DNA of 64,000 bases from Somniosus microcephalus (Eukaryota), in contig CM126206.1 of the NCBI GenBank assembly GCA_052327205.1, positions 285,882,001 to 285,946,000 on the forward strand. The letters are read 5' to 3'. The position numbers were made by a program, and so were the translations under genes. This document shows positions 8,827-53,639 of this stretch, one piece after another; positions within the stretch are counted from its first letter, which is position 1, and each line of letters opens with the position of its first letter. The notes under the pieces are model-generated. The model was not told the DNA's origin. It saw nothing but the letters and a program-made list of their open reading frames with translations, and made no database searches.

Positions 8827-8932
8827 TCTGATGAAAGGTCATAGACCTGAAATGTTAACTTCATTTCTCTCTCCACAGATGCTGCCTGACCCGCTGAACG
8901 TTTATATTTTGTATTTTATTTCAGATTTCCAG
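8827..8932 (+). mobile_element. Penelope-like pLTR 3' fragment starting at a degenerate hammerhead motif
   Basis: CTGATGAaaggtcatagacctGAAATGTTaact...ctccacagatgctgcctgacc...tttcagatttccag. Confidence 0.7.
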
Positions 8933-9147
8933 TGTACGTTCTAATTTCTAAGTTCCACGAAGAAACAGATCCATTACAAAACATGGTGGGCTGCTTTATT
9001 ATTTACTGGGAATTGTTCAGCCTGGATCCCTTTAACGCAAACAAAAGAGAGTTGCTATCTGCTGGGATTGTCCCAGTCTGCTAGTGCACCCAGTTAACCA
9101 GCTTCACAGTACAGGAGCAGACTGTAATAGGGTTTTGTGGTACATAC

Positions 9148-9277
9148 CGGCAGGTAGGAGCCAGTTGTTTGATGCTGGCATGTTCTCCTCTTCCCCCTCC
9201 AAAATCTCAGAGGATGGACCTTCCTCATTCAGACGAAATATATAAATTGAAAGATTGGCTTTTGTCAGCTCAACGGG
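9148..9277 (-). CDS. TRIP13: TRIP13 coding exon 3 (PVELTKANLSIYIFRLNEEGPSSEILEGEEENMPASNNWLLPA)
   Basis: Lies within ORF 9104..9316; homologous to human PIDLSAC...HWVLPA; cacag acceptor, gtatgt donor; 130 nt. Confidence 0.96.
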
Positions 9278-10617
9278 CTGTGAGAGAGAATGAAGAGGAT
9301 GGTTTAATAGCACCAAGCGTAATTGATGATTCTGAAAAATTACAAGTCTTGTAGTTTTTGGGTTCTGTATCCACTAGGTAGAAGTAACTGGGAAAAGTAA
9401 ACCCATCTTTTAAAGGGCATTAGAGTGGAATGAAGAAAATCTTTTCTTTTTTAAATAAAAACCACCCATACAAAATTGGCATCATCCATTTTTCCCACAC
9501 CGAGTTAACTTTAAACACATATACACAGAAGACCTCTAGAGGTAAAATTGATATTCCATTTGCAACACTGGTCATTAATTCACTTGCACTCATGCTTTAT
9601 TCTTTTAGCTCATCTACAGAGCATGGATCAACTTCCACAAGTCTCTGCAAAATATTCTTTAGAAGTAACATTTTAAATTAGTTAACCATTGCTGTCCATT
9701 CAGAAATTTAAGTATTTATCAAATAATTATTAAAATGTTTATATTTTGTATTTTATGTTAAAATACTGTTGTGACAGACACCAACATTTAAAACATTTAA
9801 GTAGAGTGCTGAATTTTGTCATATAGCTCAACATCATGTGGCAGAAACAGGAGTGATTTTATGATACTACTAGACCAAGTTAAGGGAAATCAAATCACAG
9901 GAAGAGAAAGATTTAATAAAAAATATTGCATTTAATTTTTGCATATATATAGCAGTCAATATTACATACAAAATTGAAGTGGTAGGGTATATGTTTGCAG
10001 CGATTTATTTACTATACAATCAACTCACATGGGGAGATGCTTCTCTGCTTGTAGTGCCCAACACATTAAACCTCTGGTTCTTTTAATGGGTTGTATTTCA
10101 AACATGAAAACATAACGGCCACAACATTTTTGGTGGGCCACTGCACTGTCAGAACTGCGGTGGGATGAGACTTCCACTCGCCACTCTGTTCCGGCGCCTA
10201 CTCCATCGCAAATCCCAGGCATGGGATCATTTACATTAGGCACCCTTTACTGGGCTCCCTGGGCCTTTGTCCAGCAAAGGTAGGGTTCGCGGTCAAGAAT
10301 ATCAGAACAGCACATTATGGCTGAAGATTTGAATCCTTTGTCAAAATATGCAGCAAATGTCTTTCTTTCCAGTTTCCTGCCGGCATTCAATCACATTGGG
10401 AAATGGCACTGTATTCCCCCCCCACCCTCCCACTTTATGTCTCTGTGCTACAAGTATGCATCATGCAGGCACACTTTACTTTGGCTTCCACAGAGGTGAA
10501 ACTGGTGCGAATTCTGGTGGGGCTTGATCCTGCCACTGCCACTTCTCGCAACGACGTCAGAGGAATTTCAACGCCATTACTTGCAACATCATGGCTTGTG
10601 CCACAGACACAAAAGAT

Positions 10618-10955
10618 AGACAAAAGCAAAATACTGCTGAAGCTGGAAATCTGAAATAAAACAGAAAACGCTGGAAATGCTCAGCAGGTCAGGCAGCCTC
10701 TGTGGAGAGAGAAACAGAGTTAACGTTTCAGGTCGATGGCCCTTCGTCAGAACTGGAAAAAGCTGGCGATGGAACAGGTTTTTAAGCAAGCGCAGGGGCA
10801 AAAAAGGGGGGAGGGGAGGAAAGAACAAAAGGGAAGGTCTGTGATAGGATGGCAGGCAGGAGAGATCAAGAGACATTAAGAGATGGTGCCAGGCAAAAGG
10901 AGATGGTAATGGGACAAGTTAAGAAACAAAAGATGACACTAGATGAAGTGTAAAT
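10618..10955 (-). mobile_element. Penelope-like pLTR fragment with hammerhead motif (~10718-10754)
   Basis: Minus strand reads agttCTGACGAagggccatcgacctGAAACGTTaact, followed by the same 3' segment as the 21-22 kb element. Confidence 0.8.
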
Positions 10956-11050
10956 CATATGGGTAAAAACAATCTATTTAATATCTACAATCTGTCCCAT
11001 TGACAGACCCCAGTTATACTGCCGGCTGCATTTTGTATTGAATTCAGCTA

Positions 11051-11366
11051 CAGGAAACTTTTTTTAAAATCTGGCACCGACGGGGTGCCGTTTCATCAAA
11101 AATTCTGGATAACCGAAAGCTATAGTAAAAGGTACGGAGCTGAGAGCTCCGTATAAAGCAACAAACCCTGTTGCTTAGCAACAGGTTCAGAACAATGGCC
11201 ACAAGTTCCAAGCATCTCTGTAGCTTAGCAACAGCTGCAGCCACACCCTTGCACAGCAACAGATCGAGGAAGGCAAGTAATAAAACTTACCTGAACCTAC
11301 TCCTGAAGTTTGCCGGTTAACCAAGATTTCCGGTTATTTAGGTGCCGGTAAATCGAAAGTTTCCTG
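11051..11366. mobile_element. Tigger-like MITE, family A
   Basis: TA-caggaaacttt ... aaagtttcctg-TA. Confidence 0.85.
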
Positions 11367-11987
11367 TACAAAGCAGTTAATGCTCACGTGCTTGAGCACA
11401 TGGCTTTCCGACTCTAGGGGACTACCTCTTAACGTTGGGAGATTGTGGACAGGAGCAAACGCTTTCTCTCGATATCAAAAGGATTGGGAAAGTAAGTTTA
11501 TAAAATCCAGAGGACTTTTTAAAAGCAGCTTTTCACCAAGCTGTAATTATACTGCACAAGCTCCGAGCAACGCGGTACCACCTACTCGCGTGGTCTCAGA
11601 TCACTTGCAAGTCAATTATGCTCCCACTTTCACGCTGGTGTGCTTAACATCCAAAGTCACTGCACTGATGCAAAAGTGGCAAAATAACTGCTTGCTAACC
11701 TGGCTGCCAGCTGCTTCAGTACATCAATTCACATAGTTATACTGGCAGGTGTCAGCAAGCAGAGCATCATCTCGAATGGATAATAATGCAACAGAAAAAG
11801 AGAAAATGACATTCAAATTGTAGTGCAAGCCTATTTTCTTTATATGCTTGGCTGGGAAATAAAGAGAAGCACTTCTATCACGTTAAGTGACTCATCTCAG
11901 GTCACTCAATTCCAAAATATCATTTTTTGAATTCTTACAAAAGTTCCTGCCTAACAATTTTAATCTTTCCCTCTCTCGACCTCTTAC

Positions 11988-12153
11988 CTGTCTCTCCTTA
12001 ATTGTAAGATCTGTGTCTACGATGCTCACAGAGTTTACGTTCCTCGCCAGAAATTCGTCATCAAATTCCATCCAGGCATAATCTCCGAACACCACTCTGT
12101 GTCTGCTTAGCAGCTGCAGCACACTCTGCCTCACATCTTCTTGCTTCACAGTA
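11988..12153 (-). CDS. TRIP13: TRIP13 coding exon 2 (TVKQEDVRQSVLQLLSRHRVVFGDYAWMEFDDEFLARNVNSVSIVDTDLTIKERQ)
   Basis: Overlaps ORF 11892..12149; matches the human N-terminal domain; tttatag acceptor, gtaaga donor; 166 nt. Confidence 0.97.
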
Positions 12154-13119
12154 CTATAAAAACAGAACTAAACCATGTAAAATGGCTGCTGCAAATGTGT
12201 AATTTACTTGCTGCATTTTAAATTAAAAAGCAGCGTCATTTTATTTAAAGATTTCTGGCGTGTTTCATTTTTGATTTATTGCCAGGGACTTACTAATTGT
12301 GTTTGCATTTTCATAGACTGAAATGTAATTTCTACTTTCTGTAGTGTTAATCCCATCTAGTTCTACGTTTGCATATTTGTGTATTTGAATGTCGTATTTT
12401 TACTTGTACATTTTAATGTAATTAGTCGATCTCCTGTGGGGTTGCACACGATGAGTCAAGACCAAAAGTCGTCTTCAGATGAAGATTAAGCAGAGCAGGG
12501 CCTGCAGACATAATTCAGCCCCCATTTTATTAAAGTTATACATTCTGTCCTTATTTTTATATTTCAATTATAAATTCCTATTTACATTGTAAACTGCCTA
12601 TTTAAACGTAGCGTGTTGTAATTACAGCCTTCTGCCAGTGGTGGCACTGCAGTGCTTCCACCAGAAGGAGGGCGCAATTACAGCGTGACAGGTTTACATA
12701 GGCCGTTTCCATTATGTGACGCAGGAATTTATAAATGGAAAATATTGACCGGAAGTGCACGCAGACATAAGATTTTTAATATATTGATATTTCTTAATTG
12801 AAAATTTCTACTTCAAAAGAAATGAGAGATTAAAACCTTGTTTCAAACAGTTCAGGAGTTATTTTGGAGCTTTATTATGTGATCAAAGGACTTAGTTTGA
12901 TGCTCTGCTTGAATCATTATACAGTATTGCAATACACCGAGATACAAGGCACTGATAGCAAAAGTGGGAAAACAAGACAAAACCTACTGTCTTACCAGAA
13001 ACAAGAATTTAATGTAGTGAACCATCAAAAACTGTTATAATTCTTTAGAAAATGTCCTTATAAAAGGGCAATTAACCCATTATAGACTCTGACATTCAAT
13101 GTATATTTAGATATACATG

Positions 13120-13792
13120 GGGGGAGAAATTGGGTATGTAGCGCCACCTATTAGCGCCTAAAGAGGGCAGTCGGTGGCTGTAGCTCCACTGGCCGCACCT
13201 CCCGCGATATTCAGCGGGGGCGCTAATGGTGGCGTTAGCCTGTTGCGCTGCGCCGCCACCGATGACGTCATCGGTGTGCGCAGCACCCCATTAGCGCCCC
13301 GATCGCGATATTTGGTAGCCATTCGCTACCCGCGCCCGGTTCACGGGGCCTTGCTGTGCCGGCAGTGGCGCAAGTTAAGGTGGAGGTGCGGGGCGGCTGC
13401 TTTTTTCGGCGGCCGCCTGCCAGCACCTCTGTCCCCGACCTCCTGACCCCCCCCCCCCCCCGTGGCATTGCCGGCTGTTTCCCGAGAGCCCGGCACTTCT
13501 CCTCGGTGCCGGGCTCTTTTGCCAGCACTCACGATCGGGGATCGCGCTGTTGCAGGCCCCTCCCCCTTAACAATGGGAGGAAGGCCTGCAGTACCGCAGC
13601 GTGCCGTGCCGCAGCGTGTGGCGCTGCGATATTCAGTTTCAGCGCCCTAAGAGGGACGCAGAGCGCCTCGAGCCTCACCCCGTCTCCCTCTAGGGGCGCT
13701 GAAACTGAATTTCTGGCGATCGGTATTACTCCGAACGCTCCGCAAAAATCAGCGCCCAGGCGAACTTGGCGCCACTACCGAATTTCTAGGCC
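13120..13792. mobile_element. GC-rich non-autonomous DNA transposon (PIF/Harbinger-like)
   Basis: Termini gggggagaaatt / aatttctaggcc with 3-bp ATG TSD; CpG-rich, so relatively young. Confidence 0.75.
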
Positions 13793-14444
13793 ATGGTGTT
13801 TTAGTATTTGCTAAATTTTGTGTTTCATATTATTTCCTTGTAAATCATCATTAGTTTCTTTCATCTGCAAAACTCTCTGGTCTGTGTTTAACCTCCACCA
13901 ATTGGAAGAGTTTTGGTAGTTTAGTATAGGACTACATTTAATCCAGTAAGCACACTACTGCAAGCAGTTATTGTTAATCCTCAGGGTACGTTCCTCTAAT
14001 AAGGGCAGATTATTGGAATGGAACACCAGATCATAGAAAATATAATCAGTTTTCAGAAATTGCTGTTAAACCAGAAATAGAAAACAATGATATAAATCTG
14101 AAGCTGCAGCACTGGTCAATCACCATTCAATTGAGAACTTCTGACCTCAAAGAATTGGAGTTTACACTTTTTACTAAACTAAGGGTAGAATTTGAGATAT
14201 AAAAGGCGGTGGGGGCTAGAAGCCAATGGTCAACATTTTGCATCATCCCACCAAGACAACAAGAACTTGCACTTATATAGCATCTTTAATGTAGCAAACG
14301 TCCCAAGGCACTTCACAGGAGTGTAATCAGACAAGAATTGACACCGAGCTGAAGGAGGAGACATTAGGACAGGTGAGAGGTAGACTTTAAAGAGGGTCTC
14401 AAAAAAAGGACAGAGGGGTGGAGAGGTTTAGGGAAAGAATTCAA

Positions 14445-15472
14445 CAGTTTATGGTAAATGGCTGTTTTTCAGACTGGAGGATGGTAGACAGTGGTGTTCC
14501 CCAAGGGTCAGTGTTGGGGCCACTGCTTTTTTTGAGACCTGGTTATTGGAATAGAGTAGAATTTCTAAATTTGCCGATGACACCAAACTTGGTGTGGCAA
14601 ACAGTGAGGGTGATACCAATCGACTGCAACAGGACATAAAAAGGCTAGCAGAATAGGCAAACAAGTGGCAGATGGAATTTAATACAGAGAAGTGTGAGGT
14701 GATGCATTTTGGCAGAAGGAACGGAGAGGCAATATACACTTAATGGCACAGTTTTAAAGGGTGTGCAGGGACAGAGGGACCTGGGAGTTAATGTGCATTG
14801 GTCCCTGAAGGTGGCAGGACATATTGAGAGAGTGGTTAGCAAAGCATATGGGATCTTGGGCTTCATAAATAGAGGTTGAGTACAAAGTAGAGCAGTTATG
14901 CTGAACATTTATAAAGCGCTGGTTAGGCCGCAACTGGAATATGGCGTCCAGTTCTGGTCACTACACTTTAAGAAGGATGTGAAGATCCTTGAGAGAGTGC
15001 AGAGGAAATTTACCAGAATGGTTCTGGGGATGGGGGGATCTTAGCTACAAGGACAGGTTGGAGAAGTTGGATTTGTTTTTATTAGAGCAAAGGAGGTTGA
15101 GGGGTGATTTGATAGAGGTGTACAAGATTATGACAGGTTTGGATAGGCTACACGGGGAAAGACTGTTCACACTAGTTGATGGTACAAGGACTAGGGGACA
15201 CAGATTTAAGGTTTTGGGCAAGAGATACAGGGGGGATGTGAAGAAAACGTTTTTACGCGAGTGGTGAAGACCTGGAACTCGCTGCCGACGGAAATGGTGG
15301 AAGCGGCCACACTGAATGTTTTCAAGGCGAGACTGGATAGGCACTTGAGGGAAATAAACTTGCAGGGCTACGGGAATAGAGCGTGGGAATGGAACTAACT
15401 GGATTGCTCTACAGAGAGTCGGCATGGACTCGATGGGTCGAATGGCCTCCTTCTGTACCGTTATGACTCTAC
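14445..15472 (+). mobile_element. CR1 LINE 3' part (RT)
   Basis: SGVPQGSVLGPLLF, KFADDTKL, LRGDLIEVYKIM; atgactct tail. Confidence 0.92.
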
Positions 15473-16314
15473 GGGGGAGAAATTCGGTATCATCCCGTAT
15501 GGGGTGCAATTATCGGCCGGGCGCAAATTTTAGCACCTGGCGCTAATTATCGCCTCCGACTGCAAACTTGACTTTTATCGCCTCTAGAGATGATTGGAGT
15601 GCTAAATCAGAACACTTCGCTTAAGGCGCTAACGGTGAGGAGCGAGGCGTTACCTCAGAGCACTGGCGAAGCTCATGTGATGTCAGTCAGCAATGGAACA
15701 CAGACACACTGGCGCCGGCCAGTTCTTAAAGGGGAGGGTCGATCTGGCTTTCCATCCACATCCTGCTCCTTGCAGCCTTGAATCTTGGCCTGGAGAGACC
15801 TGTACATCAAATCTGCTGGAAAGAACAATAGAGACCCCCAGGGAAAGAGCTCAGAGTGCAGCCCCCACAGTCTCTTCTAAATCGATGCAAGGAAGGTCAA
15901 GTCAAAATGAACCTGCAAAGTGCTGTTCAGTACCCTAAACTCCTTCACACAGCATTGAATCTCTCCAGAAGTCTCTCTCTCTCGCTGAATGCGTGGTGTA
16001 AAAATGTCGCTGACAAAAAAAGGTAGGAAGCGGTCACCTTTAAATAGCGCTCCCCCAGTCCCTTCCCGACTGCAAAACACTCACCTCAACCTGTCGTTGC
16101 TAGCGGCAGGCGGGAAGGCAGGGGGCGCCACTCAATATCCGGTCCGGGGCGCAACACGCTCGACTGACGTCACGATCTGCGGGCGCAGGAGATCGTGGCG
16201 GTAGTGTTTAGCGCTGCCGCAAAATGTCTGGTCAATTTCACGAGCAGCGCAAACATCGCCATGCCCGGGCGCTAGTTGCTAACGGGAGGCGCAAAGCAAC
16301 CGAATTGTCCCCCC
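15473..16314. mobile_element. Harbinger-like MITE inserted in CR1 3' tail
   Basis: TIR gggggagaaattcggt / accgaattgtcccccc; flanked by atgactctac CR1 tail repeats. Confidence 0.75.
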
Positions 16315-17661
16315 ATGACTCTACAGCTGAAGGTGTGGCCGCAAATGATGGGATGAAGGAAGTGGGAGATGCACAAGAAGCTAGAGTGGTAGGAACACAG
16401 AGTTCTTGGAATGTTGTAGGGCTGGAGGTGGTTACGGAAATTGGAAGGGGCCAGGCCTTGGAGGAAATTGAACACGAGGAGCAGAATTTTAAAATGGAGG
16501 TGTTTGGGGACCAGGAGCCTCTGTAGGTCAGCGAGCACAGGGGTGATGGGTGAATGGGACTTGGAGCAAGTTAGCATTTGGGCAGAGTTTTGGATGAGCT
16601 TAAGTTTATGGAGGGTGCAAGGTGGGAGGCTGGCCAAGAGAGCATTGGAATAGTCGAGTCTGGAAGTAACAAAAGCATAGATGAGGGTTTCAGCAGTAGA
16701 TGGGTTGAGGCAGGGGCGGTGACTGATGATGTTACAGAGGTGGAAGTAGGCGGTCTTGGTGATGGAGCGGACATAGGTTCAGATGCTCAGCTCAGGGATG
16801 TCGAGGTTACGAACAGTCTGGTTCCGCCTCAGACAGTGGCCAGGGAGGGGGATGGAATTGGTGGCTAGGGAACGGAGTTTGTGATGGGGACCGAAGACAA
16901 TGGCTTCAGACTTACCAATATTTAACTGGAGGAAATTGTGGCTCATCCAGGACTGGATGTCAGACAAGCAGCCTGAGAACAGAGACAGTGGAGGGGTCGA
17001 GAGAGGTGGTGGTGAGGTAGAGCTGGGTGTTCTCAGCTTGCATGTGGAACCAGACGTCGTGTTTTTGGATGAAGTCACTGAGGGCAGCACGTAGATGAGA
17101 AATAAGAGGGGACCAAGGATAGATCCTTTGGTGACTCCAGAAAGAGCGTGGATTGGGCCAAAGCAGGAAAATTTACACAAGAAAATAATGATGAAGCTAA
17201 ACTGTCTATATTTAGGTGAAGGTCGTGGAGATTCTCTGGCTAAGATTGGATAGGCATGAGGGGAACCAGGCAAAGGGAGTACAACTTAGCTGGACAATGG
17301 AGGGGAGCTGTTGGTGGAGGATGGTGTGGTCAACCGTGTCAAAGGCTGCAGGCAGGTCGACTCTTCAAGGTTTGGCAGAAAACACTGGCAACAGGAAAGC
17401 AGGCTACCTTATTGTGGCAGAAATCAAAACCGTGCCAGCTGCTTCCTGGCTTCAGTTCCTACTGCAGGCTTCGGTTACTGAACGATTCAATTTTAATTAC
17501 TATTTCCCAGTCTCTGACTTTCATTTTCTGCTTCTTGTTCAGTTTTTCCAAATGTAAAATCTCAATTTTCACATATTTCCTCCCTGTAAATCCCCCTACA
17601 CTACTCCTTGCCCAAATGGTGGATCAAATAGGCAATCCGATCCCAGACAGACATTCATCAA

Positions 17662-18545
17662 ATCATAGACACATACAGCACAGGAGGCCGCCATTTGGCC
17701 CATCTATTCTGTGCCGGCTCTTTGAAAGAGCTATCCAATTAGTCCACTCCCCTGCTTTTTCCCCCATAGCTCTGCAATTCTTTTCCTTTTCAAGTATATA
17801 TTCAATTCCCTTTTTAAAGTTACTACTGAATCTGCTTCCACCACCCTCATTCCAGATCATAACAACTCGCTGCGTTAAAAAATTCTAATTTCTCCCCTGG
17901 AATTTTTTTTAACCAATAATAATAAATCTGTATTCTTTAGTTACCGACCCTCCTTCCAGTGGAAACAGTTTCTTCCCATCTATTCTATCAAAATGCAATG
18001 ATTTGTGCCTTGATATATTGTGTACAATTCTGGGCACCACACTTTAGGAAGGATGTAAAGGCCTTGGAGAGGGTACAGAGGAGGTTTACTAGGATAATAC
18101 TAGGGATAAGGGACTTCAGTTATGTGGAGAGACTAGAAAAGCTCAGATTGTTCTCCTTAGAACAGAGAAGGGTAAGGGGAGACCTAATAGAGGTATTCAA
18201 AATTATGAGGGGTTTTGATAGAGCAAGTAGGGAGAAACTGTTTCCTCTGGCAAGTGGGCCAGTAACCAGAGGCATAAATTTAAAATAATTGGCAAAAATA
18301 CTACAGGGGAAATGAGGAGATTTTTTTCACACATGGTTGTTAAGATCTGGAACGCACTACCAGTGGAATCAGATTCAATAGGAACTTTCAAAAGGCAAAT
18401 GGACATGTACTTAAAGAGGATTCATTTGCAGGGTTATGGGGAGAAAGCTGGGGTGTGGGACTAAATTGTACAGCTCTTTCGAAGAGTCAACACAGGCAGG
18501 ACAGGCCAAATAGCCTCCTTCTGTGCTGTATGGTTCTATGATTTT
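17662..18545. mobile_element. Two CR1 3' ends in inverted orientation (minus 17662-17990, plus 18010-18545)
   Basis: ORF 17959..18288 YCVQFWAPHFRKDV...RGDLIEVFK; CR1 tails face outward at both ends. Confidence 0.85.
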
Positions 18546-18928
18546 CCCCTTAACCGTCTACTCAACTACTAGAGAGGCTAAATTTTGCATTTACTTTGCC
18601 TTGTACTGTAATGTGTCTGAGATCAGGAACTCAACACCTGAAGGCACAAACCATTGCATTGTGCATTAGTGTGTTTGACCGAACACCACTATCCTCGCCT
18701 GTTGTCTTTTGCTTAAATCTGTTTTTTCCTTTGAGTAATTTTTCCATTTTGTTTTCCTTGTTTACTGTGGCATGAGAATGGTCAGAGAAACAAATGGATC
18801 ATACTAGTATCAATATGCAACTAAAAAATAAATCGGTCCATTCTGAGCAGGATCAGCAGTCATTTTCAAGTAGCTTCTGACTCAAAGCTATTTCAATGGG
18901 TTCTGTTGCACGAAATAAAATGACTTAC

Positions 18929-19017
18929 CTGTTCTGTTTTACACAGACTTCCACGTGTATTTGCATGGATTCGAAAGATGGTAACGCTTGCTTTAATTCT
19001 CCAGCTGCTGCATCCAT
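18929..19017 (-). CDS. TRIP13: TRIP13 first coding exon (MDAAAGELKQALPSFESMQIHVEVCVKQN)
   Basis: ATG at 19017; matches human MDEAVGDLKQALP...VHVEV; gtaagt donor. A polypyrimidine tract plus cag acceptor lies 9 nt upstream of the ATG (exon starts at 19026). Confidence 0.95.
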
Positions 19018-19904
19018 TTATAGTTACTGATGAAACAGAAGTTTAAAAAAAAAAAAGAATTGGACAATCTAATCAATTGATGCTCATGACAGAAGCAAAT
19101 TCCTACATTCATTTTCAGTGGCATCAATAATGGACCATGCGTTCAGGAAAATACAAGAGGTTACGTCCCATCTATACACATATGCAAAATTAATTTACAT
19201 CTATTTAGAGTGTCATTTGAGAGAAGGATGTACACACACATAAAACAACAACAATTATGGATGTCCCCTTCACAGGTTCCAGTCACCTTTGAGCTGCACA
19301 GTACAATGTACAGGAGTGTCCAAGTATTTTAGACTTTGTAGGCTTGCTTAGATACATAGCAAGAAGTCTCAAGTCACAAATAAGTTTAAATCAATATTGC
19401 CATTAATTCATATACATCTCAAGCTATAAATACCAACAGAACTTAGGGTTTATCCACCAGTGAGGCAACAGTGCAAAATATAGTCCTTTCCAAACATTAG
19501 AGTATAAGAATTTAAACAGGACAAACCAGGAAGTAAGAAATACAAGGACAAAAAGAACTGAGTTGCCAGGGCTTTTAAGTCACACATCGTCCACGGGCTG
19601 TAAGCACCCCTAGCAACAGTTTGAAGATTTTACAATTATATTGATTACAACTCTTTGATTTATCTCGATACATTTGGAGTTACTGGCAGCTACACCCAAA
19701 GCGCTAGTTCTCCTGCTAACATAGCCCACGCAAGGATATTAGAATGACTTGCAGTTGTGAGGATGTATCTCGCAAACAAATCCCCACAAAGGTTGTATGG
19801 AGGCAGGGGGAATAGTGGCAGATTTGGGGGGGGGGGGGGGGGGGGGGAAAGGGGGAAGAAGGGGATTGGGGAGGAGGGGGGGGGGGAGAATAGTTGGGGT
19901 GGGG

Positions 19905-20922: not shown

Positions 20923-20971
20923 ATGGGGAAGAAGCACAAGAAACACAAGTGTGAGTGGCGCTCGTACGACG
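20923..20971 (+). CDS. BRD9: BRD9 exon 1 CDS (MGKKHKKHKCEWRSYD)
   Basis: Matches human MGKKHKKHKAEWRSSYE; gtgagt donor; 49 nt. Confidence 0.97.
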
Positions 20972-21302
20972 GTGAGTGAGGTAGTGAGTGAGGTAGTGAG
21001 TGAGCGAGCCCGGGCCCCTTTCCGTGTAAACAGCACACGGGCGAGGACGATTCCTCAGGGAGGGGAGGGTGGGGGTTTAGCGTCCAGTCAGCAGAGCTGG
21101 ACCGGGCCGGGAGGGGGAGGGGCTCCTATTTATATACACACACACACACCAGAAAGTGTTGCAATAACAACAGAAAACACTCAGCAGTTTATTATGAAGT
21201 TGATGTGTTGTAACAAGTACTACCAGATTTAAATAAAAAGAGGTCTCTGTCTTGGAAAAAAACACTCAGCAGGCCAGGCAGCATCCGTGGAGAGAGATTC
21301 AG

Positions 21303-21339
21303 AGTTAACGTTTCAGGTCTGGGACCCTTCATCAGAACT
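21303..21339 (-). ncRNA. Minimal hammerhead ribozyme motif (inverted pLTR arm)
   Basis: Minus strand reads agttCTGATGAagggtcccagacctGAAACGTTaact. Confidence 0.7.
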
Positions 21340-22142
21340 GGAAAAAGCTAGAGATATAATAGATATTAAGCAGGTGCAGAGACAGGGGGTGGGGGTCAGG
21401 AGGGGAGGAAGGAATTGAAAGAACATATTGTGCTTATGTAAGAGGCAGGAAAGATAAAATGTTGCAAATGGGAATGGCAAAAATCATACTGCATGAAAAA
21501 TGGGGGCAGGGATAATTATTTGAAATTGTTGAACTCAAATGTTGAGTCCGGCAGGCATGCAAAGTGCCCAATCGAAAGATGAGGTGCTGTTCCTCGAGCT
21601 TACGTTGAGCTTCATTGGAACAATGCAATAGGCCGAGGACAGAGAGATCAGAGTGGGAGTGAAGCGGTGAATTGATGTGACAGGCGACCGGAAGCTCAGG
21701 GTCACCCTTACGGACTGAACGGAGGTGTTCTGCAAAGCGGTCGCCCAATCTGCGTTTGGTCTCCCCAATGTAGAGGAGACCGCATCGTGAGCAGCGAATA
21801 CAGTATATTAAATTGCAAGAAGTACAAGTAAATCGCTGTTTCACCTGGAAGGGGTGTTTGGGGCCCTGGACAGTGGGTCAGCTCAACGTAAGCTCGAGGA
21901 ACAGCACCTCATCTTTCGATTGGGCACTTTGCAGCCTGCCGGACTCAACATTGAGTTCAACAATTTCAGCTAATTATCCCTACCCCCATTTTTCATGCAG
22001 TATGATTTTTGCCATTCCCATTTGCAACATTTTATCTTTCCTGCCTCTTACAAAAGTACAGGGTGTTCTTTCAATTCCTAACCCCCTCCCCCACCCTTGT
22101 CTCTGCACCTGCTTAATATCTGTTACATCTCCAGCTTTTTCC

Positions 22143-22179
22143 AGTTCTGATGAAGGGCCCCAGACCTGAAACGTTAACT
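22143..22179 (+). ncRNA. Minimal type I hammerhead ribozyme motif in Penelope pLTR
   Basis: AGTT-CTGATGA-AGG(gccccaga)CCT-GAAA-CGTT-AACT: core boxes, stem II, palindromic stem III, stem I AGUU/AACU. Confidence 0.7.
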
Positions 22180-22399
22180 CTGTTTCTCTCTCCACGGATG
22201 CTGCCTGGCCTGCTGAGTATTTCCAGCATTTTCTGTTGTTAGTTCAGATTTCCAGCATCCGCAGTATTTTGCTATTATAGAAAGTGTTGCAGCCCCCTCG
22301 GCATCTGCAGCGACCCTGCAACAGACCCATCTGCTGCCTGGCTGATTTTTAAAAAAAAATTCTACCTTTGTTGCTTCCTCCCTAGTTTTGATTCTTTTT

Positions 22400-24647: not shown

Positions 24648-24679
24648 GCAAGTCGACAAACTGTTGGTTTGATCAAGAA

Positions 24680-26610: not shown

Positions 26611-26989
26611 TGATGAAAACTAGAATAGCATATTGGAGAGGAGGTGAGTCCTTAAATTGAGAGCAAAATGATAAATAAAAGGAACATTTAAGCCATGGAT
26701 ATGTGCCAGAGGACTTGTCAATGTGGACCTGAGTTAATCCGAGTAATTGCAGGCTAGTTAGAGTAACATCTGCAGTGGGTAAAACTTCAGCACTTTAAGG
26801 ATAAAATGACCAAGTATCTAGATAAAGAGAAAATTGTTGCAAGTAGATAGAGCAAATTTCAAAAGTGACAATCATGCTTGTGAAACTTCATTGAATTTTT
26901 TAACAAGGTAACAGCTAACGGTAGATAGGATGCTTGCGTGGAGGGTAAACACCAAGGCCGAATAGTTGGGCCGAACTCTGTTTCCATGC

Positions 26990-27212
26990 TAATACAATAG
27001 CAAAATACTGCGGATGCTGGAAATCTGAAATAACAACAGAAAATGCTGGAAATACTCAGCAGGCCAGGCAGCATCCGTGGAGAGAGAAACAGAGTTAACG
27101 TTTCAGGTCTGGGGCCCTTCAAAGGCTCCCAGACCTGAAACGTTAACTCTGTTTCTTTCTCCACGGATGCTGCCTGGCCTGCTGAGTATTTCCAGCATTT
27201 TCTGTTGTTATT
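26990..27212. mobile_element. Fold-back (palindromic) Penelope pLTR derivative with 13-bp TSD
   Basis: Near-perfect inverted repeat centred at ~27120; direct repeat tctgtttccatgc at 26977 and 27213; inserted in a CR1 3' tail. Confidence 0.85.
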
Positions 27213-27479
27213 TCTGTTTCCATGCGGTCTGTTTCTATGTATCTATTTTCCTTAGTAAAGAGCGATGCAAAGTACTTCTTAAATACCTCTGCCATTTTTT
27301 GATTATCATCTACAAATTAACAATCCTCTCTTCTCGAAGGTCCTGCTTTGCTTTTATCAATTCTCTTTTACTGATGTGCTTATAAAATACTTTACCTTTC
27401 CTCTTAATGTTTTTATTAGTTCCTTATCCTCTCTCTTAACTTTCCATGCCCAGCTCTTACTCTCTCTCATTTTCTCATA

Positions 27480-31509: not shown

Positions 31510-31717
31510 GTAAAAGTATTTTTGGTTTTCCTGGGTGTACTAGCAATACAATGTACAGCCATAAGTGGACGGAGTATTACAAGGGAGCATGTTGGCACAA
31601 ATGATGGAACTACTGAGCAGGTCCTTTAGCATCAGTAAAGTAAAACTATTTTAGAGCCCCAATTTCAGACTTGCAGCAACCGCAGGATTTTGCTTTTGTT
31701 TTATGAGTAATCTTCTA

Positions 31718-31806
31718 CACCTGAAACGTTAACCCATCTTTTCTCTTTAGAGATGCTGATAGATCTGCTGTGTATTACAGCATTTTCTATCTTTATTTCA
31801 GATTTG
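31718..31806 (+). mobile_element. Older Penelope pLTR fragment
   Basis: cacctgaaacgttaac...gatgctg...cagcattttct...tttcagattt. Confidence 0.6.
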
Positions 31807-44914: not shown

Positions 44915-44989
44915 ATACCATTCTAGAAAAGGAACTCAACTTTTAACTGTTAGAAATGTTGGATATAAATGTGCTAGTAATTACTAATT

Positions 44990-45605
44990 TGAGAGGGTTC
45001 GAGTACAGGAACATGGATGTCTTTCTGCAGTTGTACAGGGCCTTGGTGAGACCACACCTTGAGTATTGTGTGCAGTTTTGGTCGCCTTATCTGAGGAAGG
45101 ATGTTTTTGCCATGGAGAGAGTGCAGCGAAGATTCACCAGACTGATACCTGGGATGGCAGGAATGACGTATGAGGAGAGATTGGGTCGATTGGGCTTATA
45201 CTCGCTGGAGTTTAGAAGAATGAGAGGGGATCTCATTGAAACTTATAAAATTCTAACAGGACTAGACAGACTAGATGCAGGAAGGATGTTCCCGATGGTC
45301 GGGTAGTCCAGAACCAGGGGTCACAGTCTAAGAATAAGGGGTAAGCCATTTAGGGCAGAGATGAGGAGGAATTTCTTTACCCAGAGAGTGGTGAACCTGT
45401 GGAATTCTCTACCACAGAAGGCAGTTGAGGCCAATTCATTAAATATATTCAAGAAGGAGTTAGATATATTTCTTAAGGCTAAAGGGATATGGGGAGAAGG
45501 CAGGGACAGGGTACTGAGTTTGGATGATCAGCCATGATCTCATTGAATGGCGGAGCGGGCTCGAGGGGCCGAATGGCCTAGTCCTGCTCCTATCTTCTAT
45601 GTTTT
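44990..45605 (+). mobile_element. CR1 3' part, well preserved
   Basis: ORF 44956: LYRALVRPHLEYCVQFWSPYLRKD...RRMRGDLIETYKIL. Confidence 0.92.
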
Positions 45606-45832
45606 CCCTTGCCGCAAAAAAATTATATGGAAATTTTTTTTTTTTTTTTTTTTTTTAAGTACTTGTTTGCGACATCAGTTCGCCATCACTTTTAGACCAA
45701 AAATCTTTTTGTTGTGTAATTAAATTGTAACGTTTTTTCTTTCAAGCGGTTGCATGAAACTTTGCAAGAAATATTTTGAAAATGCAAAGCCTTTGCGTGG
45801 TGTATTTTTTTAAATGTATATTTTCTCTGCAG

Positions 45833-46080: not shown

Positions 46081-46173
46081 GAATAAAAACAAAAAATGCT
46101 AGAAATACTCAGCAAGTCAGGCAGCATCTGTGGAGAGAGAAACAGAGTTAACATTTCAGGTTGTTGACCTTCA
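46081..46173 (-). mobile_element. Penelope pLTR fragment
   Basis: aaatactcagcaagtcaggcagcatctgtggagagagaaacagagttaacatttcagg...ccttca. Confidence 0.75.
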
Positions 46174-47081
46174 ACTCCTGGGAGTAAGGGACGTTGAAGG
46201 AAGATGTACAACAGTGTAATCTGTTGATTTAGTAAGATATTAGAATACCTACAGTTCTAACACAGCCCCAGGGTAGTTTCAAATTCCATAAACCAACTTG
46301 ACCATTCAAGTTCAAGCTAAATCTACAATCGCACCTGTGATTGAGTATCGCAGAGTCTGTTTTAACTTGATGGTAATCCAGTGCCTACTTCAGTGAAGTC
46401 CAGGGGATTCCGAGTGAAACTGAATTATTTGCCAGTTGCCCTCAATAATCATACTTTTTTTTAAAAACAGAAATAACGAACATGAAAATTGTCCCTACAT
46501 CAGAACCGTTTCAATGTATTTTTAAAAAAAACTGTATAATCTATTAAGAGGTTGGGGTAGGGATATTGTACTGCTATGTTGGTTTGAAAAGGTCAGAAAT
46601 ATAAGATTGTCACTAATAAATCTGAAACTTCTTTACCCAGAGAGTGGTTAGAATGTGGAAATTGCTACCACATGGAGTAGTTGAGGCAAATAGCATAGAT
46701 GCATTTAAGGGGACTCTAGATAAGTACATACAGGAGAACACTGATTCTTTCCACGGTGTTCTGGTCCCTCTGCGGATGGGAGGGAGGAGAGCAAATCGAG
46801 GTAGGAGAGGGGAGCATGGGCGAAGGGGGAGTAGAGGGGATTGAAGCGGGGAGAAGGTCAGGAGCTTGGGGCTGAGGGGAGAACGTGATCTGGGTCTAAA
46901 GGAGATGGTGGGGGAGGGCGATTGAGAGGAGGAATGTGATCCAGGTGCAAAGATAGATCACGTGTCCCCCCCCCCCCCCCCCGCTGTTAGGCCTGGATCA
47001 CGTATACTTCCACCCTACCCCCTTTACACCTGCACCACGTTCTCTCTATTTCCCCCACCCCCCCACCAAGACCGCAGGGAT

Positions 47082-48010
47082 GGGAGGAGAGGGGACCGAG
47101 GGTTGGAGGGAGGAGAGGGGACCGAGGGTTGGAGGGAGGAGAGGGGACCGAGGGTTGGAGGGAGGAGAGGGGACCGAGGGTTGGAGGGAGGAGAGGGGAC
47201 CGAGGGTTGGAGGGAGGAGAGGGGACCGAGGGTTGGAGGGAGGAGAGGGGACCGAGGGTTGGAGGGAGGAGAGGGGACCGAGGGTTGGAGGGAGGAGAGG
47301 GGACCGAGGGTTGGAGGGAGGAGAGGGGACCGAGGGTTGGAGGGAGGAGAGGGGACCGAGGGTTGGAGGGAGGAGAGGGGACCGAGGGTTGGAGGGAGGA
47401 GAGGGGACCGAGGGTTGGAGGGAGGCGAGGGGACCGAGGGTTGGAGGGAGGAGAGGGGACCGAGGGTTGGAGGGAGGAGAGGGGACCGAGGGTTGGAGGG
47501 AGGCGAGGGGACCGAGGGTTGGAGGGAGGCGAGGGGACCGAGGGTTGGAGGGAGGCGAGGGGACCGAGGGTTGGAGGGAGGCGAGGGGACCGAGGGTTGG
47601 AGGGAGGCGAGGGGACCGAGGGTTGGAGGGAGGCGAGGGGACCGAGGGTTGGAGGGAGGCGAGGGGACCGAGGGTTGGAGGGAGGCGAGGGGACCGAGGG
47701 TTGGAGGGAGGCGAGGGGACCGAGGGTTGGAGGGAGGCGAGGGGACCGAGGGTTGGAGGGAGGCGAGGGGACCGAGGGTTGGAGGGAGGCGAGGGGACCG
47801 AGGGTTGGAGGGAGGCGAGGGGACCGAGGGTTGGAGGGAGGCGAGGGGACCGAGGGTTGGAGGGAGGCGAGGGGACCGGGCCGAGGGTTGGAGGGAGGGG
47901 AAGGGAGGGGACCGGGCCGAGGGTTGGAGGGGGGCGAGGGGACCGGGCCGAGGGTTGGAGGGAGGGGAAGGGAGGGGACCGGGCCGAGGGTTGGAGGGGG
48001 GAAGAGAGGA
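47082..48010 (+). repeat. 26-bp G-rich minisatellite (accgagggttggagggagg[a/c]gagggg), ~31 regular units to ~47877 plus degenerate units
   Basis: Directly visible; explains the 300-390 aa repetitive ORFs at 46962-48258. Confidence 0.97.
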
Positions 48011-48816
48011 TCGAGGGCGGCGGGGGGGGGGGAAGGTCAGGAGCTTTTTTTGTGTGGGGGGGGGGTGGAGAATGTGATCCAGGTGCAAAAATAGATCATG
48101 TTTTCCCGCCCTCTGTTAGGCCTGAATCATGTTCCACCCTACACCCTTTACACCTGCACCACGTTCTCGCTCTCCTTTTGTTCCTGCTAAGCTACACGAC
48201 CATGCTGTCTGGAGGTCCCATGCAGGCCGCTTACCGGCTTTTGAAGGGGAAATTTTGAACATGCGCAAAATTTTGAATGGGCCTCGCAGCCTGTTAATGG
48301 GACTGTGCTCTCAAAAAAAAAAAAAAAAAAAAAAAAATGAGGGAGAACATTTATCCACCAACACCTTGATTGTAAAATTCTCATCCTCATGTTGAAATCC
48401 CTCCATGTCCTCACCTCTTCCTATCTGAACTCAGCAGTGTGAATGCTCCTAACCTGGGAGAGTGAGCCCTGTCTATTCTCTGAAAGCAGTAGTGTTAGCA
48501 CTGTGAACTCTCGAGCCTGGCTGTCACAATGAATGGATCAAATTACACATTACAAAGATCCTGATTACTCTCCAGCAGGCAGGATCAAATTACACATTCC
48601 AGACAAACTGTTGGGTGTGTCTGAAGGGGGCCAATCAGAAATTTGGTGTTGCAAATAGACACGATAGAAGGCTATGCTGATAGGGTTAGATGGAGTGGGG
48701 TGGGAGGAGGCTCCTCCTCAACACTGACATAGACCAGTTGGGCTGAATGGCCTGTTTCTGTGCTGTAAATTCTATGTACAGTAATTGTTTTACAACATTT
48801 GTACCTTTTCTTTCAG

Positions 48817-48873: not shown

Positions 48874-51606
48874 GTGAGGCTACAGAACTAACTTTGTTCT
48901 GTTTTATTGGAAACTAAAATTTGCTGCAAATGGTAACTGAGATGTAAGTTACAATGCACAGTCAAGGCAAAGCTCCAAGCTACATGGAAAAGTGAAATCA
49001 TGCAGGTCCTGAGTTCAAAGTGCTGCTTTGTGCTTGATCATCCCACTTACTAGTTCCTTATGCTTGTACTACTGGCTGAGCATGTCTGCAGCTTAAGTAC
49101 CAGAACATTCAAGCCAAATAGGATGGTGAGCAGTGTGGTTGTTAAGAGTATTGTCCTCTCAACTTAGACCTGGGTTTGAATGAAACCCATCTAATACCAT
49201 AAAGTTTTCTTCCCTCTGCCTCTAAATCCTTTAAGTGGATTGATTTGGGTCATCCTCTATCTAGTTCCCAAAAGACATGCAAAATTGCCTCTAATTTGGT
49301 GCAGAGTCAGTCTTAATCAGGCTACAGGGATACCCAGTTTGGGAGCTACTACATTGGTGCAATAAAGACTACTTGTTTGATGTTGGAGATTAAGTCGAAG
49401 GGTACAGTAGACTGGAGTTGTGTTGGATTAGCAACCTACAGTTGACCCCACTCCCACATGGTTGACTCTTGATGCCTTTTGAAGCTACTCATTGTTGGGC
49501 AACTAGAGACGGACAATAAATGGAGCATCACACATGTCCCAGGAATGAGTTTAAAGTAAATGTTGTTGAGGATCCCAGGAAGTTCACTCACAAGGTCAGT
49601 CTTACCAAATTTCTGTGTTATTATTTACTAGGATGTTTTTTCCATTGCTGAGTTCTAATGAAACACGTTTTCTGCAATGGGAGCAAGAGTTTTCCTTGGG
49701 TAGCTGACACTGTCTTTCAGAACTTAAGAACCTTTTTTCATTCCATATTTGTGTTAGCCTACAAAAAATAATTTTTAGGGCCACCATGATTTCTATAAGG
49801 AAACTGAAGGATAAAGCATTATTCTAGAAGTTGTCTTTAACACTTTATCAGCTGACGAGTCCCACTCTTGATATGTGACTTATCAATATCCCTTTTGGAC
49901 ATGTTACCATTGGCTGATATAGAATTCTTGCAGGCACTGGCAGGAGCAGATCCAGAATCATATATCATTGTTCTAATATTTCTATATTAAAATACTTATT
50001 CTTGGGGTGATTGTGGGGAAAAGTTCTATTCAGAGGCTTTAAGTTCACTGGTCAAAAATCCTAAAGCATGACAATTTGGCCTCCAAAGAATTTTTTGGTT
50101 TATGGTATCATATGTTTTTGATGTAAATTCAGGTTCAGAATTTCTATGACTTAATTCCCAAAAGTCCAGCATACATTTTTTCTAACTTAAGAGGCTGTAA
50201 CCACTGGAACAGAGGGTGACTGGGGAATGTTCATGAGCTTTCCCAAAAGGAGATGGATAGTCTGTTAAAAAGGTTATGTACAGTATGTCCGATTGAGGCA
50301 TGGTTCATTAACACAGTCCAGAGAGGAAATTGGGTGTTGGAATGGCTTCATTCATGTGAGCTCAGTGGAGTTTGGATATCCGGAGTCAGTCCCAGCAGGC
50401 CAATCCCGGTTTGGCGGCGGGGGGGCGCGGTGCGCGGTTGGCGCATTAGAGGTCAAGCCGTTGGCTTCCTCTCCAATTAAAAGAGCCCAGGCAAACTGTA
50501 TCAACCTGGTAAGGATATCAAACACAGAGAGTGCCCTGCTTAAGTATAGCGCCAGTTATTTTCAGAGAAGTGCTTCTGGCCTGTTGATAGGGATAGTATG
50601 ACTTGCTTTATTTTCTATATTACGAGAAGTATATGAACTATTGAATTAATCATTGCAAAATAGATTAAAACTTGTTGTAAACGTTACTGTGGCAGATAGC
50701 ACAATGTAGAAAAGGTAGGCAGGGTATTGGGTGATGTGTTTCATGGTCACTGGTCTCCTGGAATTTGTTTTGATCACCTTTAGTGGTTCAGAGAGGCATT
50801 TCACACATTCTTTTCCCCCCTGAATTGCCCTAGGGTATTTTTCTGTTTGTTTTTGCCTCTCCCAGGAGGTTATGTGGTTACTAGCCGATGGAGGGCATTG
50901 GGGATCATCATGATGTTCAGTTACACCAAGACACTATGGGGCAGGTTGGATGGGCCAGGTTGTATTTTGCTGTTTGTCGTTTTTCTGCATTCGTATGTTT
51001 ACATAAGAAATAGGAGCAGGAGTAGGCCATTTGGCCCCTCGAGCCTGCTCTGCACATCGTATGATTTATAGTCGACCTCATCTCACTAAAATGTTCATCA
51101 GTCCTCCTTCCAGAAGATAGAAGAAATGTGTGTGAGGGCAAGTGCGAGATTACAGTATCCAGTTCATACAACTCTGGGTCACGCTATCCTATGAGTAGAT
51201 GTTGGGCAATAAATGTGAGCTATTGCTTGCAAGGGACGGGGGCTAGCTTATAGGACAGAACTTGAGAATATCTGGAGCAGACCGAAATTTTGATACATAC
51301 TTTTGAATCACAAACTCTTGGTCATTAGCTGTTGCAATCTGATTTGAAATGGCAGCGGGATTTGTAAAAGCAGTTAACTGGGCAAGTGCTGACCAGAACC
51401 CTTGTAGTTCTCACTCTTTGTCTACGAACAAATTTTAGACTTCCCTCGTAAATTTCAATTTTCAGGAGTTCACTGTTAACTTTTCAATTGTTTATTGCTA
51501 TATTTTCTGATTTAGGCACACATGCATTTATCTTTTCTACCCCTCTCTGATCTTTTCCTTTTCCCTGTACTGCCATTGTCTTAACTAACTTTTTGTTTTG
51601 TTGTAG

Positions 51607-51678
51607 GCTCCAGCAATTTTTATAAAAGAGGAACCCAAATTGCAGTCTGCCTGTCCAGAAACATCTAAACCAATAATG
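51607..51678 (+). CDS. BRD9: Putative additional BRD9 exon (APAIFIKEEPKLQSACPETSKPIM) with no human counterpart recognised
   Basis: CTAAC branch point at 51585, long U-rich tract, tag acceptor, ATG|gtgaga donor; 72 nt, open and phase 0/0. Confidence 0.68.
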
Positions 51679-53639
51679 GTGAGAGGGCCTGAGTGTTCAT
51701 AGGTTATGTTGAAAGTACTGTGCAAATAACGGTTTAGATAGAAAGAAAGACTTGTATTTATATAGTGCCTTTCACAATTTCAGGACGTCCCAACCCACTT
51801 CACAGCCAGTTAAGTACTTCTTGAAGTGTAGTCACCGTTGTAATGTAGGAAACGCAACAGCCAATTTACACATGGCAAGCTCTCACAAACAGCACTGTGA
51901 TAATGAACAGAAGACAGGGTCATATTATAATCTAATACAGCCCAAATGGTCAGTTCTGTTGAGCAACAACTTGCATTTATCTGGTGCCTTTAATGTTCCA
52001 AGCAGCAGGCGATTAGTCTTTTCGGGAGGCTTAGGAGTAGTGACTGGAAGCTTGGTTGAAGAGTTGTGCTTTGAGAAGGCGGCGAGAGTCTGGGGCTTGA
52101 GTTGGAAAGTTTCACATAGGTCGGTGGATACTACTGGGGAGAAATTCATGGAGGTGCATCGTGGAAGTTAAGTTTCATCCTGCGGCTACAGATCTAGAAT
52201 ACCCAGAATACAGCACAACATCCCATAGGTGGAAAGGAACCAAGAAGTTAATTGTTTCTGTTGATGAATTCTATGAGTGATGCATCGTGGGGGTTGCAGG
52301 TTTCACCTTGCTGCTGTAGAACTATGGTATCCAGAGTATAACCTGACAACCTGGAGAAAATAATTTAAATGTTCCCTTTTTTGTGCCCCCTGAGTTTTTA
52401 ATGTAGGTTAAGCTAATGAATAATTCGGAACTAATCGCATTTGCGGTGAAGTGGTTTTTGTTTTGCTGAGAGACTGGTTCCAACCCAAGAATCAGAGAGG
52501 AGGAATGTTTTAGGTGCTTTGATGCTGGCCTCAAACATTACAGCTGATAGCATCAGACACTGTGGCCAGTGTTGGTCAGTCCCCAGACCATAGCAAATGG
52601 CCATCTGTTTAGCTGCTGGTCATAGGAGACTGAGCAGTGGGGGAAAAAAACCTCCCTGGTACAGCACTACATTAATGACTGTTTCAGAAACAGCTACAAA
52701 TCCCTATGAGAATTAAAGAGGGGCGGGGCGATAGCTTTATAATTTATGTAAATAACCTGAGGAAAAGGAGGATTTAGAGAGGGGAAGGAGGGAAAAAATA
52801 AAGTACTTGTATCTTCAGCAAATACTACAACTCCATCATGGGAGGTGGAGCAAAAATATAAATACTTGTAATGTAAAGGACAGAATAGAAGGATTTGGGG
52901 AGAGAAGGAAGAACCAAGTTACTTGCACCTTTAAATAAGTTTTGCAAGGTGGAAGGCAAAAAATATTACCCACATTGTATCTGTCGGGCTTTTATCTTTC
53001 AGTATTAATATGGTGTGTTTTTTGATACGCAAACTTAAGTGTGGGTCATATATTTATTATCGCTGAGACAGTAAAAGGTCATTTTCAAGAAAAATATAAT
53101 TCAAGGCTGATTGATTAGCTGCTCAGAGAAAGGTCAACATTTCAACTGTATCCCTTCATCAGAACTGACTTTCCATTTTAGTTTTCCAGTATTCAATTCA
53201 AGCTTCTTTTTGTATTATGCTGTGGTCCAATAGACAGTATTGGTCAAGGAGGTGTTGAGAGTACTGGCCCATCGTATCAAGGTGTGAGTTTGCATTGTGG
53301 GCCACAAGGTCTCAGAAATACAGAACTGGCAGGATGTTTCAACAAGTATATAGATTAGTGTTGGTGAGAAATATATTAATAAAAGCAATTTTGGTCTCGT
53401 GCATCACTTGCTTTTGGATAGATTTTCACCTATCTGAATTGTGAATTGCTTTACAAACATCTACCTGTGTTAATGGGTTTATACAGTAGTTTTAATGGTA
53501 TTCTACATGAAACCATTATTGAAGTGTGAAATGTTCATTTGTCCAGAACCTGTGAAACTGATCATTGAGACACATTACAGGACAATAAGTCTAACCTACA
53601 TTTTATGGTTATAACTTTGTACTTTATTGATTGCTATAG

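Follow-up and report, generated by a model that had tools for sequence, protein, structure and literature searches.

We analysed 64,000 nt of the Somniosus microcephalus genome (GCA_052327205.1, contig CM126206.1, positions 285,882,001 to 285,946,000, forward strand; hereafter the window). The window holds parts of two genes, TRIP13 on the minus strand and BRD9 on the plus strand, and a dispersed family of repeats with hammerhead ribozyme motifs inside both genes. These repeats are 3' ends of a Penelope-like element (PLE) with a minimal type I hammerhead. Very probably they are the truncated ends of a high-copy PLE whose motif served the element, and both intact-core copies lying sense to a host gene probably leave the BRD9 and TRIP13 pre-mRNA uncut.

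Hammerhead motifs and element remnants in the window

The hammerhead motifs in the window are real. The pattern CTGAYGA-N8-30-GAAACG matches three times, at 22147-22173(+), 21309-21335(-) and 10724-10750(-), against a mean of 0.04 in shuffled sequence, with none of 100 shuffles reaching three. These are the motifs that an initial annotation, made from the sequence alone, had called intact at 22143(+), 21303(-) and about 10718(-). The degenerate copies (8828, about 53130-53170) and truncated copies (27120 on both arms, 31718, 46150) that it listed were also recovered by self-BLAST and direct reading, at 8828(+), 27120 (both arms), 31719(+), 46150(-) and 53167(-), and a tail-only remnant at 31662-31703 adds to that list. 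Its total of about eight copies has to be lowered to seven element sites, since 21335(-) and 22147(+) belong to one insertion. The 3' segment of about 100 nt said to follow every copy has two lengths and is lacking at 53167, which is not among the nine tail-profile matches in the window. Across 106 distinct copies, the tail ends 55-90 nt after the cut site in 45 and 91-112 nt after it in 49, with five ending earlier and seven later. The cut predicted after U22175 was placed correctly, this being the last nucleotide before the cleavage site of the 22147 motif by hammerhead numbering. The proposed Infernal check did not recover the motif, as an Rfam scan of the window gave no hammerhead family among ten matches at E<=10. 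The Rfam models are probably unsuited to a motif without loop 3.

The motifs 21335(-) and 22147(+) are the two arms of one insertion (21163-22278), which begins 190 nt after the first BRD9 donor and is flanked by a 12-bp direct repeat that appears to be its target-site duplication. The arms are 92.3% identical over 352 columns. In BRD9 intron 1, inverted arms of about 340 bp and 92% identity (21260-22222) would be expected to anneal into a long duplex, on which A-to-I editing would be likely.

Table 1. Features of the element copies and their host context, in window coordinates (pLTR stands for pseudo-long terminal repeat and ORF for open reading frame).
Feature	Position	Strand	Description
PLE stub	8827..8932	+	Antisense to TRIP13; begins at hammerhead core; 5' strand of stem I absent; stem II fully paired; A10.1-U11.1; C15.2 is U
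TRIP13 coding exon 3	9148..9277	-	Host context
PLE pLTR-plus-tail stub	10622..10816	-	TRIP13-sense, between coding exons 2 and 3; intact core; C3 at 10750; cleavage predicted after U10722; stem II pair 4 mismatched (C.A)
TRIP13 coding exon 2	11988..12153	-	Host context
BRD9 first coding exon (presumed)	20924..20972	+	Start codon, donor site, N-terminal sequence
12-bp direct repeat, left copy	21151..21162	+	Flanks two-armed insertion
Antisense arm	21163..21877	-	PLE ORF 3' end, pLTR, family-type hammerhead (C3 at 21335), short tail
Secondary insert, about 73 nt, AT-rich	21188..21260		Inside antisense-arm tail; 12-bp duplication 21176-21187 / 21261-21272
Open frame with GIY-YIG endonuclease fragment	21434..21877	-	PF01541, E 4.2e-5, 24.2 bits against a cut-off of 22.6
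Inverted sense arm	21880..22278	+	pLTR, hammerhead motif, long tail
Minimal hammerhead motif	22143..22179	+	BRD9-sense; stem I 4 bp; C3-A9 core 22147-22153; one additional A; stem II closed by G.U, with one C.A mismatch; GAAA; CG; cleavage predicted after U22175
12-bp direct repeat, right copy	22279..22290	+	Flanks two-armed insertion
Back-to-back palindromic stub	26988..27222	.	Long-tail arm 27121-26988(-), short-tail arm 27122-27222(+); both without CUGA
Two old remnants	31662..31805	+	Tail only, 31662-31703; motif 3' half and tail, 31719-31805
Core-truncated stub	46082..46173	-	Antisense to BRD9
Degenerate motif	53130..53170	-	Antisense to BRD9; CUGAUGA intact; stem II broken; no family tail

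TRIP13 is identified by a PCH2/TRIP13 match in PDB (E 1.3e-9) and by Pfam TRIP13_N. Besides exons 2 and 3 (Table 1) it has coding exons at 19026-18929 and 7055-7000, and it continues into the neighbouring 20 kb. The first coding exon has its own splice acceptor, so an untranslated exon probably precedes it and the 10750 copy probably sits in transcript intron 3. The earlier placement of this copy in intron 2 is right in that it lies between coding exons 2 and 3, but the transcript intron is probably a different one. BRD9 runs from 20924 to at least 55565 and is recognized by a bromodomain and DUF3512 exons (Pfam) and a BRD9 match in PDB (E 0.002). We take the sequence at 55565, located by sequence motifs, to be BRD9-like coding sequence, and the first exon was assigned in part by its N-terminal sequence. 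The gene matches bear out the claimed orientations, with 22147 sense to BRD9 (+) and 10750 sense to TRIP13 (-). The head-to-head TRIP13/BRD9 region at 20300-21100 is CpG-rich, and a candidate untranslated TRIP13 exon ends near 20320. Further features of the window are a long G/A-rich tandem repeat in a BRD9 intron (46926-48258) with open frames on both strands, LINE-like reverse transcriptase fragments (4092-5661, 16272-17285, 41512-42512, 44947-45661 and others) and several short repeat families.

The element family and its hammerhead

The assignment to PLEs with a minimal type I hammerhead, made in the initial annotation, is supported by a GIY-YIG endonuclease domain in the window and by reverse transcriptase (RT) and a full-length pLTR-ORF-pLTR arrangement in relatives, which lie in other stretches of the same genome (numbered L002, L131 and so on). 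The C-terminal GIY-YIG domain typical of endonuclease-positive (EN+) PLEs is found at 21434-21874(-), with a PF01541 match above cut-off, and the hammerhead motif lies in the pLTR, between the end of the endonuclease and the tail. Near-identical loci (96-98% over about 200 nt) extend upstream into an RT with YIDD and a C-x4-C-x2-C linker. The YIDD-bearing RT stands directly upstream of the matching pLTR in L002, L012, L019, L021 and L025, and the linker is seen in the translations of L004, L012 and L027; the window copies are truncated and lack the RT. An RVT_1 match in L132 (E 2.3e-5) falls below the curated cut-off, and L138 has no Pfam match. The linker conforms to CX2-5CxxC, a Neptune feature common to Nematis, which marks PLEs of these two groups between RT and endonuclease (PMC8557442). 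In the full-length relative L131, an inverted arm precedes pLTR-ORF-pLTR; its motifs lie at 2400 and 5475 (3,075 nt apart), and its ORF is in separate frames. L131, the window insertion 21163-22278 and the two clusters of 3' ends together display the tandem, the inverted 5' copy and the one-sided tail of PLEs. By analogy, the two tail ends would have their counterpart in the pair of sites at which reverse transcription starts in a lizard PLE (PMC11167929). Tandem non-coding units of a few hundred nucleotides, as in non-LTR retrozymes, were not found; the copies are dispersed or inverted and linked to an ORF.

Several relatives have peculiarities of their own. L138:1485-4542 is a full-length element between pLTR motifs of two different subfamilies, 3.06 kb apart, possibly a product of recombination or template switching. 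In L022:1538-2260, of the young subfamily, an ATG inside the hammerhead core (A6-U7-G8) starts the element's N-terminal frame; in other subfamilies position 7 is C or A instead of U. The region L018:646-961 contains a 315-aa minus-strand open frame that may resemble a Harbinger-type transposase.

A genome-wide count, which had been proposed as a check, gave 31,831 exact matches to the pattern of the 3-nt-loop group, 57,025 to a wider motif pattern and 65,237 to a tail pattern, with no match to any reversed control. Tail-profile matches in 40 random 10-kb stretches (14 in all) extrapolate to about 226,000 genome-wide (95% interval 123,000-379,000). With about nine copies of the intact pattern per Mb, one would be expected in many of the genome's genes. 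Identity between the 22147 copy and 19 members of its subfamily, taken irrespective of their likeness to it, is 91.9-98.1%, and older stubs reach 77-88% identity to L131 (77% for the remnant at 31719-31805). These identities suggest a family that is young relative to the older stubs, and nothing here speaks for present activity. The description as a recently active family thus holds for relative youth, but the insertion's arms have diverged to 92.3% and the L131 ORF is frame-broken.

Core conservation was scored on 50 copies picked without regard to the motif, of which the 39 keeping the 5' side of stem I were used; the copies share ancestry, and truncation affects part of the upstream flanks. 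At the nine core positions 329 of 351 cells (94%) agree with the majority, compared with 102/152 (67%) in loop II, 675/1,011 (67%) upstream and 396/466 (85%) just downstream. The outcome named beforehand as damaging, a core no more conserved than its flanks, was therefore not seen. Among the 57,025 wider-pattern matches, the 3-8 pair takes the form C-G 31,945 times (by subtraction), U.G 13,781 times, U-A 8,454 times and C.A 2,845 times, the last against 6,893 expected under independence; most of the C.A rows among the matches listed look like CpG decay. The 2.1-1.1 pair, in the 71 of 106 copies that could be parsed, is U-A in 56, C-G in seven, U.G in seven and mismatched in one. The suggested search for stem covariation thus found compatible changes across subfamilies at both pairs, and slight covariation at the closing pair of stem II.

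The minimal hammerhead ribozyme (min-HHR) core, CUGANGA with GAAA-UH, is present in the three intact window copies. Stem II fits the register published for min-HHRs, in which A9 is followed by an A left unpaired, and is closed by G10.1.U11.1 or A10.1-U11.1; an extra unpaired nucleotide between 9 and 10.1 belongs to the published min-HHR (PMC4209133). Folding of a family-type copy gives the 5-bp stem II with the extra A a probability of about 0.62, against 0.002 for the A-U register. The stem II closure by A-U reported earlier exists only in the 3-bp register of the two mutated copies, while the family register closes with G.U or A-U after the extra A. Across the 31,831 matches the 10.1-11.1 pair is G.U in 18,787 (by subtraction), A-U in 12,264, G-C in 562 and A.C in 218. 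The published consensus G10.1-C11.1 is hence not the pair of the window's subfamilies (G.U or A-U in 31,051/31,831) and is usual in a U3.G8 sister subfamily. Natural hammerheads with other 10.1-11.1 pairs exist (PMC3088659), and we therefore file the motif as min-HHR-like. Positions 15.2-16.2 are palindromic without a loop 3 (CG in 61/71 parsed copies, TG or CA in the others). Judged by sequence, the motif is structurally a hammerhead at the family level, and its conserved core and compatible pair variation across subfamilies support selection on the fold in element lineages.

Two sister subfamilies, represented by L137 and L144, deserve mention. The U3.G8 subfamily (13,781 matches) is very large, with a GUC triplet, G10.1-C11.1 and short branches in the tree, and the U3-A8 subfamily (8,454 matches) often carries a compensatory C2.1-G1.1. 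We considered U3.G8 as a step between C3-G8 and U3-A8 and found no support, as the main U3-A8 rows fall between the U3.G8 and C3-G8 groups. The tree was unrooted and built from 50 rows with positions 3 and 8 masked; the oversampled young subfamily was held to 12 of 69 copies, and truncated rows with unrelated flanks give long branches. A splice-acceptor-like run after the cut site was dropped as a candidate feature, since copies have either AG or GG there, a pattern like that left by CpG decay. A literature search found no paper on C3U/G8A wobble cores of hammerheads.

The sense copies in BRD9 and TRIP13 pre-mRNA

The BRD9-sense copy at 22147 and the TRIP13-sense copy at 10750 probably do not cut host pre-mRNA, and the self-cleaving motif earlier placed in each transcript is not supported as a working one. 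Folding of 21140-22200 predicts a mean pairing of 0.97 between the 22147 motif and the antisense arm and leaves stems I and II with none. In BRD9 pre-mRNA, synthesis reaches the antisense arm first and the sense arm later. Stem I has a predicted probability of <=0.01 in both sense copies, no helix III is possible in a monomer, and a stable three-helix monomer was not found. Both sense copies also carry C for U at stem II pair 4, creating a C.A mismatch at a pair that the antisense arm at 21335 keeps. Stems I and II fold at -1.4 kcal/mol in the sense copies and at -6.5 in the family type, a cost of about 5 kcal/mol. The mismatch shifts the sense copies into the weak 3-bp A-U register that had been described for them.

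In the exact form of the young subfamily, the stem II C variant has 119 matches genome-wide, and the U form of the same site has roughly 6,400, a figure derived by eye from 20 of the first 100 matches listed. The C variant is sporadic, occurring on 16 long-tail and 14 short-tail arms with a partner arm carrying U in four of five two-armed insertions; an arm-specific or lineage-specific origin was rejected for this reason. Two of the 119 C-variant matches lie 5 kb apart in the window (22152-22180 and 27092-27120), and another two fall on the same contig within 1.6 Mb. This clustering may reflect local conversion, a local re-insertion or mutation bias in the region.

A search of the window and of 50 kb of DNA beside it turned up no intact sense copy, in BRD9 or in TRIP13, that could serve as a dimer partner. 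CUGA is missing from the other BRD9-sense remnants, and 30 kb of DNA further downstream yielded a single additional TRIP13-sense copy (L141:7927-7987), the core of which is broken. Published min-HHR monomers did not cleave and dimers cleaved at a low level (PMC4209133), the hammerhead of a lizard PLE cleaved only with protein, no RNA-seq reads ending at its cut site in the experiments described (PMC11167929), and introns cut by a slow hammerhead were still spliced, according to earlier work cited in PMC2995048. The antisense-arm duplex, the stem II mismatch, the missing partner and the weak cleavage of published min-HHRs together argue that the sense copies probably do not cut.

We suggest the following course of events. 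In the element's tandem transcript, the two pLTR motifs would pair through the palindromic ACGU into a weak, probably protein-assisted double hammerhead, as published work and the structure of L131 indicate. Stubs, inserted in both orientations and commonly bearing a second, inverted arm, would then come from reverse transcription that starts about 70 or about 104 nt after the motif and breaks off early. After insertion, stubs appear to decay as passengers, to judge from their sequences and the predicted behaviour of their RNA. For the BRD9 copy, pairing with its upstream arm into a duplex of about 340 bp is predicted, and one stem II pair is gone from each of the two sense copies.

Several observations weigh against this account or leave it unaided. 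Under nearest-neighbour folding the active fold is improbable (P about 1e-3 or below), family-type copies included, and the model thus separates active from inactive copies poorly; the intermolecular stem III had a probability of 0.000 in six of six dimer foldings. The closing pair of stem II covaries only slightly in the 3-nt-loop group (A.C 218 against 306 expected), one whole large subfamily has the non-Watson-Crick U3.G8, and the covariation counts are counts of copies, reflecting few source-element events rather than independent changes. The window holds nine tail matches against 2.2 expected, by a profile built from the window's own copies. Two raw RNA runs with a matching species label, aligned to 6800-24900, are neutral. 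Depth in the unique TRIP13 and BRD9 exon bins is 0-1.8, and 67-69% of reads run into unlike sequence and hence come from other copies. None of the read-end clusters listed, 24 of 85, lies at a predicted cut site. Both sense copies share one uncommon change, which fits either chance (n=2) or a purging of intact sense copies.

Purging of this kind supposes that intact sense copies, acting in trans or with the aid of PLE protein, would cleave host pre-mRNA in vivo, and that selection removed or disabled them so that only damaged or duplex-buried ones such as these two are left. The shared stem II change occurs in three of the first 100 matches listed (by eye) while the antisense arm keeps its pair, the core of the second TRIP13-sense copy (L141:7927-7987) is broken as well, and a preprint reports retrozymes depleted in Xenopus introns (10.64898/2026.07.22.740005). 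We nevertheless consider the purging explanation very unlikely, as it draws on two or three copies noticed post hoc, the C variant is sporadic as described above, slow-hammerhead introns are still spliced, and sense and antisense remnants in the window are about equal (five and five). A broader form of it also seems quite unlikely, namely that, in a genome with tens of thousands of PLE hammerheads in the core states C3-G8, U3-A8 and U3.G8, intact sense copies cut pre-mRNA enough to be purged or disabled in introns. If true, a strand-bias count would yield evidence, on the scale of a genome, that minimal PLE hammerheads function in vivo. Domestication of one or both copies as intronic ribozymes regulating BRD9 or TRIP13 processing, like that of RECK, is extremely unlikely. 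Sense orientation, intact cores, a distance of about 1.2 kb from the first BRD9 exon and the precedent of conserved intronic hammerheads (PMC6155905) would suit it, against which stand the lack of helix III, the damaged stem II, the duplex with the upstream arm and the standing of both copies as ordinary subfamily members among tens of thousands.

The motif might instead be non-catalytic throughout the family and retained by the element solely as a structure that binds protein or starts translation, which we regard as unlikely. Consistent with a loss of catalysis are U3.G8 in 13,781 matches, in the window's subfamilies G.U or A-U where the consensus has G10.1-C11.1, U as nucleotide 17 of 56/71 parsed copies, the core ATG that opens the N-terminal frame in L022, and the finding that hammerhead mutants left PLE insertion in vitro unaffected (PMC11167929). 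However, conservation at the nine positions of the catalytic core far exceeds that of loop II, activity is known for variants with the U3-A8 swap (PMC3088659), and position 7, part of the ATG, varies freely (U 29, C 22, A 20). For the window copies, a family-wide loss of catalysis is compatible with our preferred explanation, that of truncated PLE ends that leave their host transcripts uncut.

Comparison with known systems

Minimal hammerheads of PLEs are already known from many animals including fishes and have been described since 2014, and their in vivo function in metazoans has been called unclear (PMC8557442). Our literature search found no paper on PLE hammerhead elements of sharks; the excerpted text on min-HHRs in metazoan PLE pLTRs (PMC4209133, by Cervera and de la Pena, 2014) names no cartilaginous fish, and its alignment supplements may include shark sequences. 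The window's subfamilies differ from those min-HHRs by G.U or A-U in place of G10.1-C11.1, and a sister subfamily by U3.G8. Copy numbers there, obtained by other methods, are 4,000-9,000, compared with tens of thousands of matches here. The family is a natural experiment, with enough intronic copies for a strand-bias test and with natural core variants (U3.G8, G10.1.U11.1).

The shark family resembles Neptune- and Nematis-type EN+ PLEs (Craig et al. 2021, PMC8557442) in its RT, CX2-5CxxC linker and C-terminal GIY-YIG, and in 5' truncation, partial tandems, an inverted 5' copy and a one-sided tail of 30-40 bp, a likeness of shared features rather than of RT phylogeny. With the Poseidon element PAc of Anolis (Frangieh et al. 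2024, PMC11167929) it shares a hammerhead overlapping the ORF start and, probably, two reverse-transcription starts that define the tail. RNA-seq as described for PAc gave no evidence of cleavage, and the RNA reads here gave no locus-level information. The shark family differs from PAc in having a Zn-finger-like linker, and protein-assisted cleavage is a PAc result. Amniote intronic hammerheads (RECK and others; PMC6155905, PMC3088659) are likewise type I motifs in introns, sense to the host gene, but those are conserved and active, whereas the shark copies are damaged repeats without helix III. Non-LTR retrozymes (10.64898/2026.07.22.740005) also carry PLE-related type I hammerheads and occur in one chondrichthyan; they form tandem non-coding arrays, in contrast to the dispersed shark stubs, which run into PLE coding sequence.

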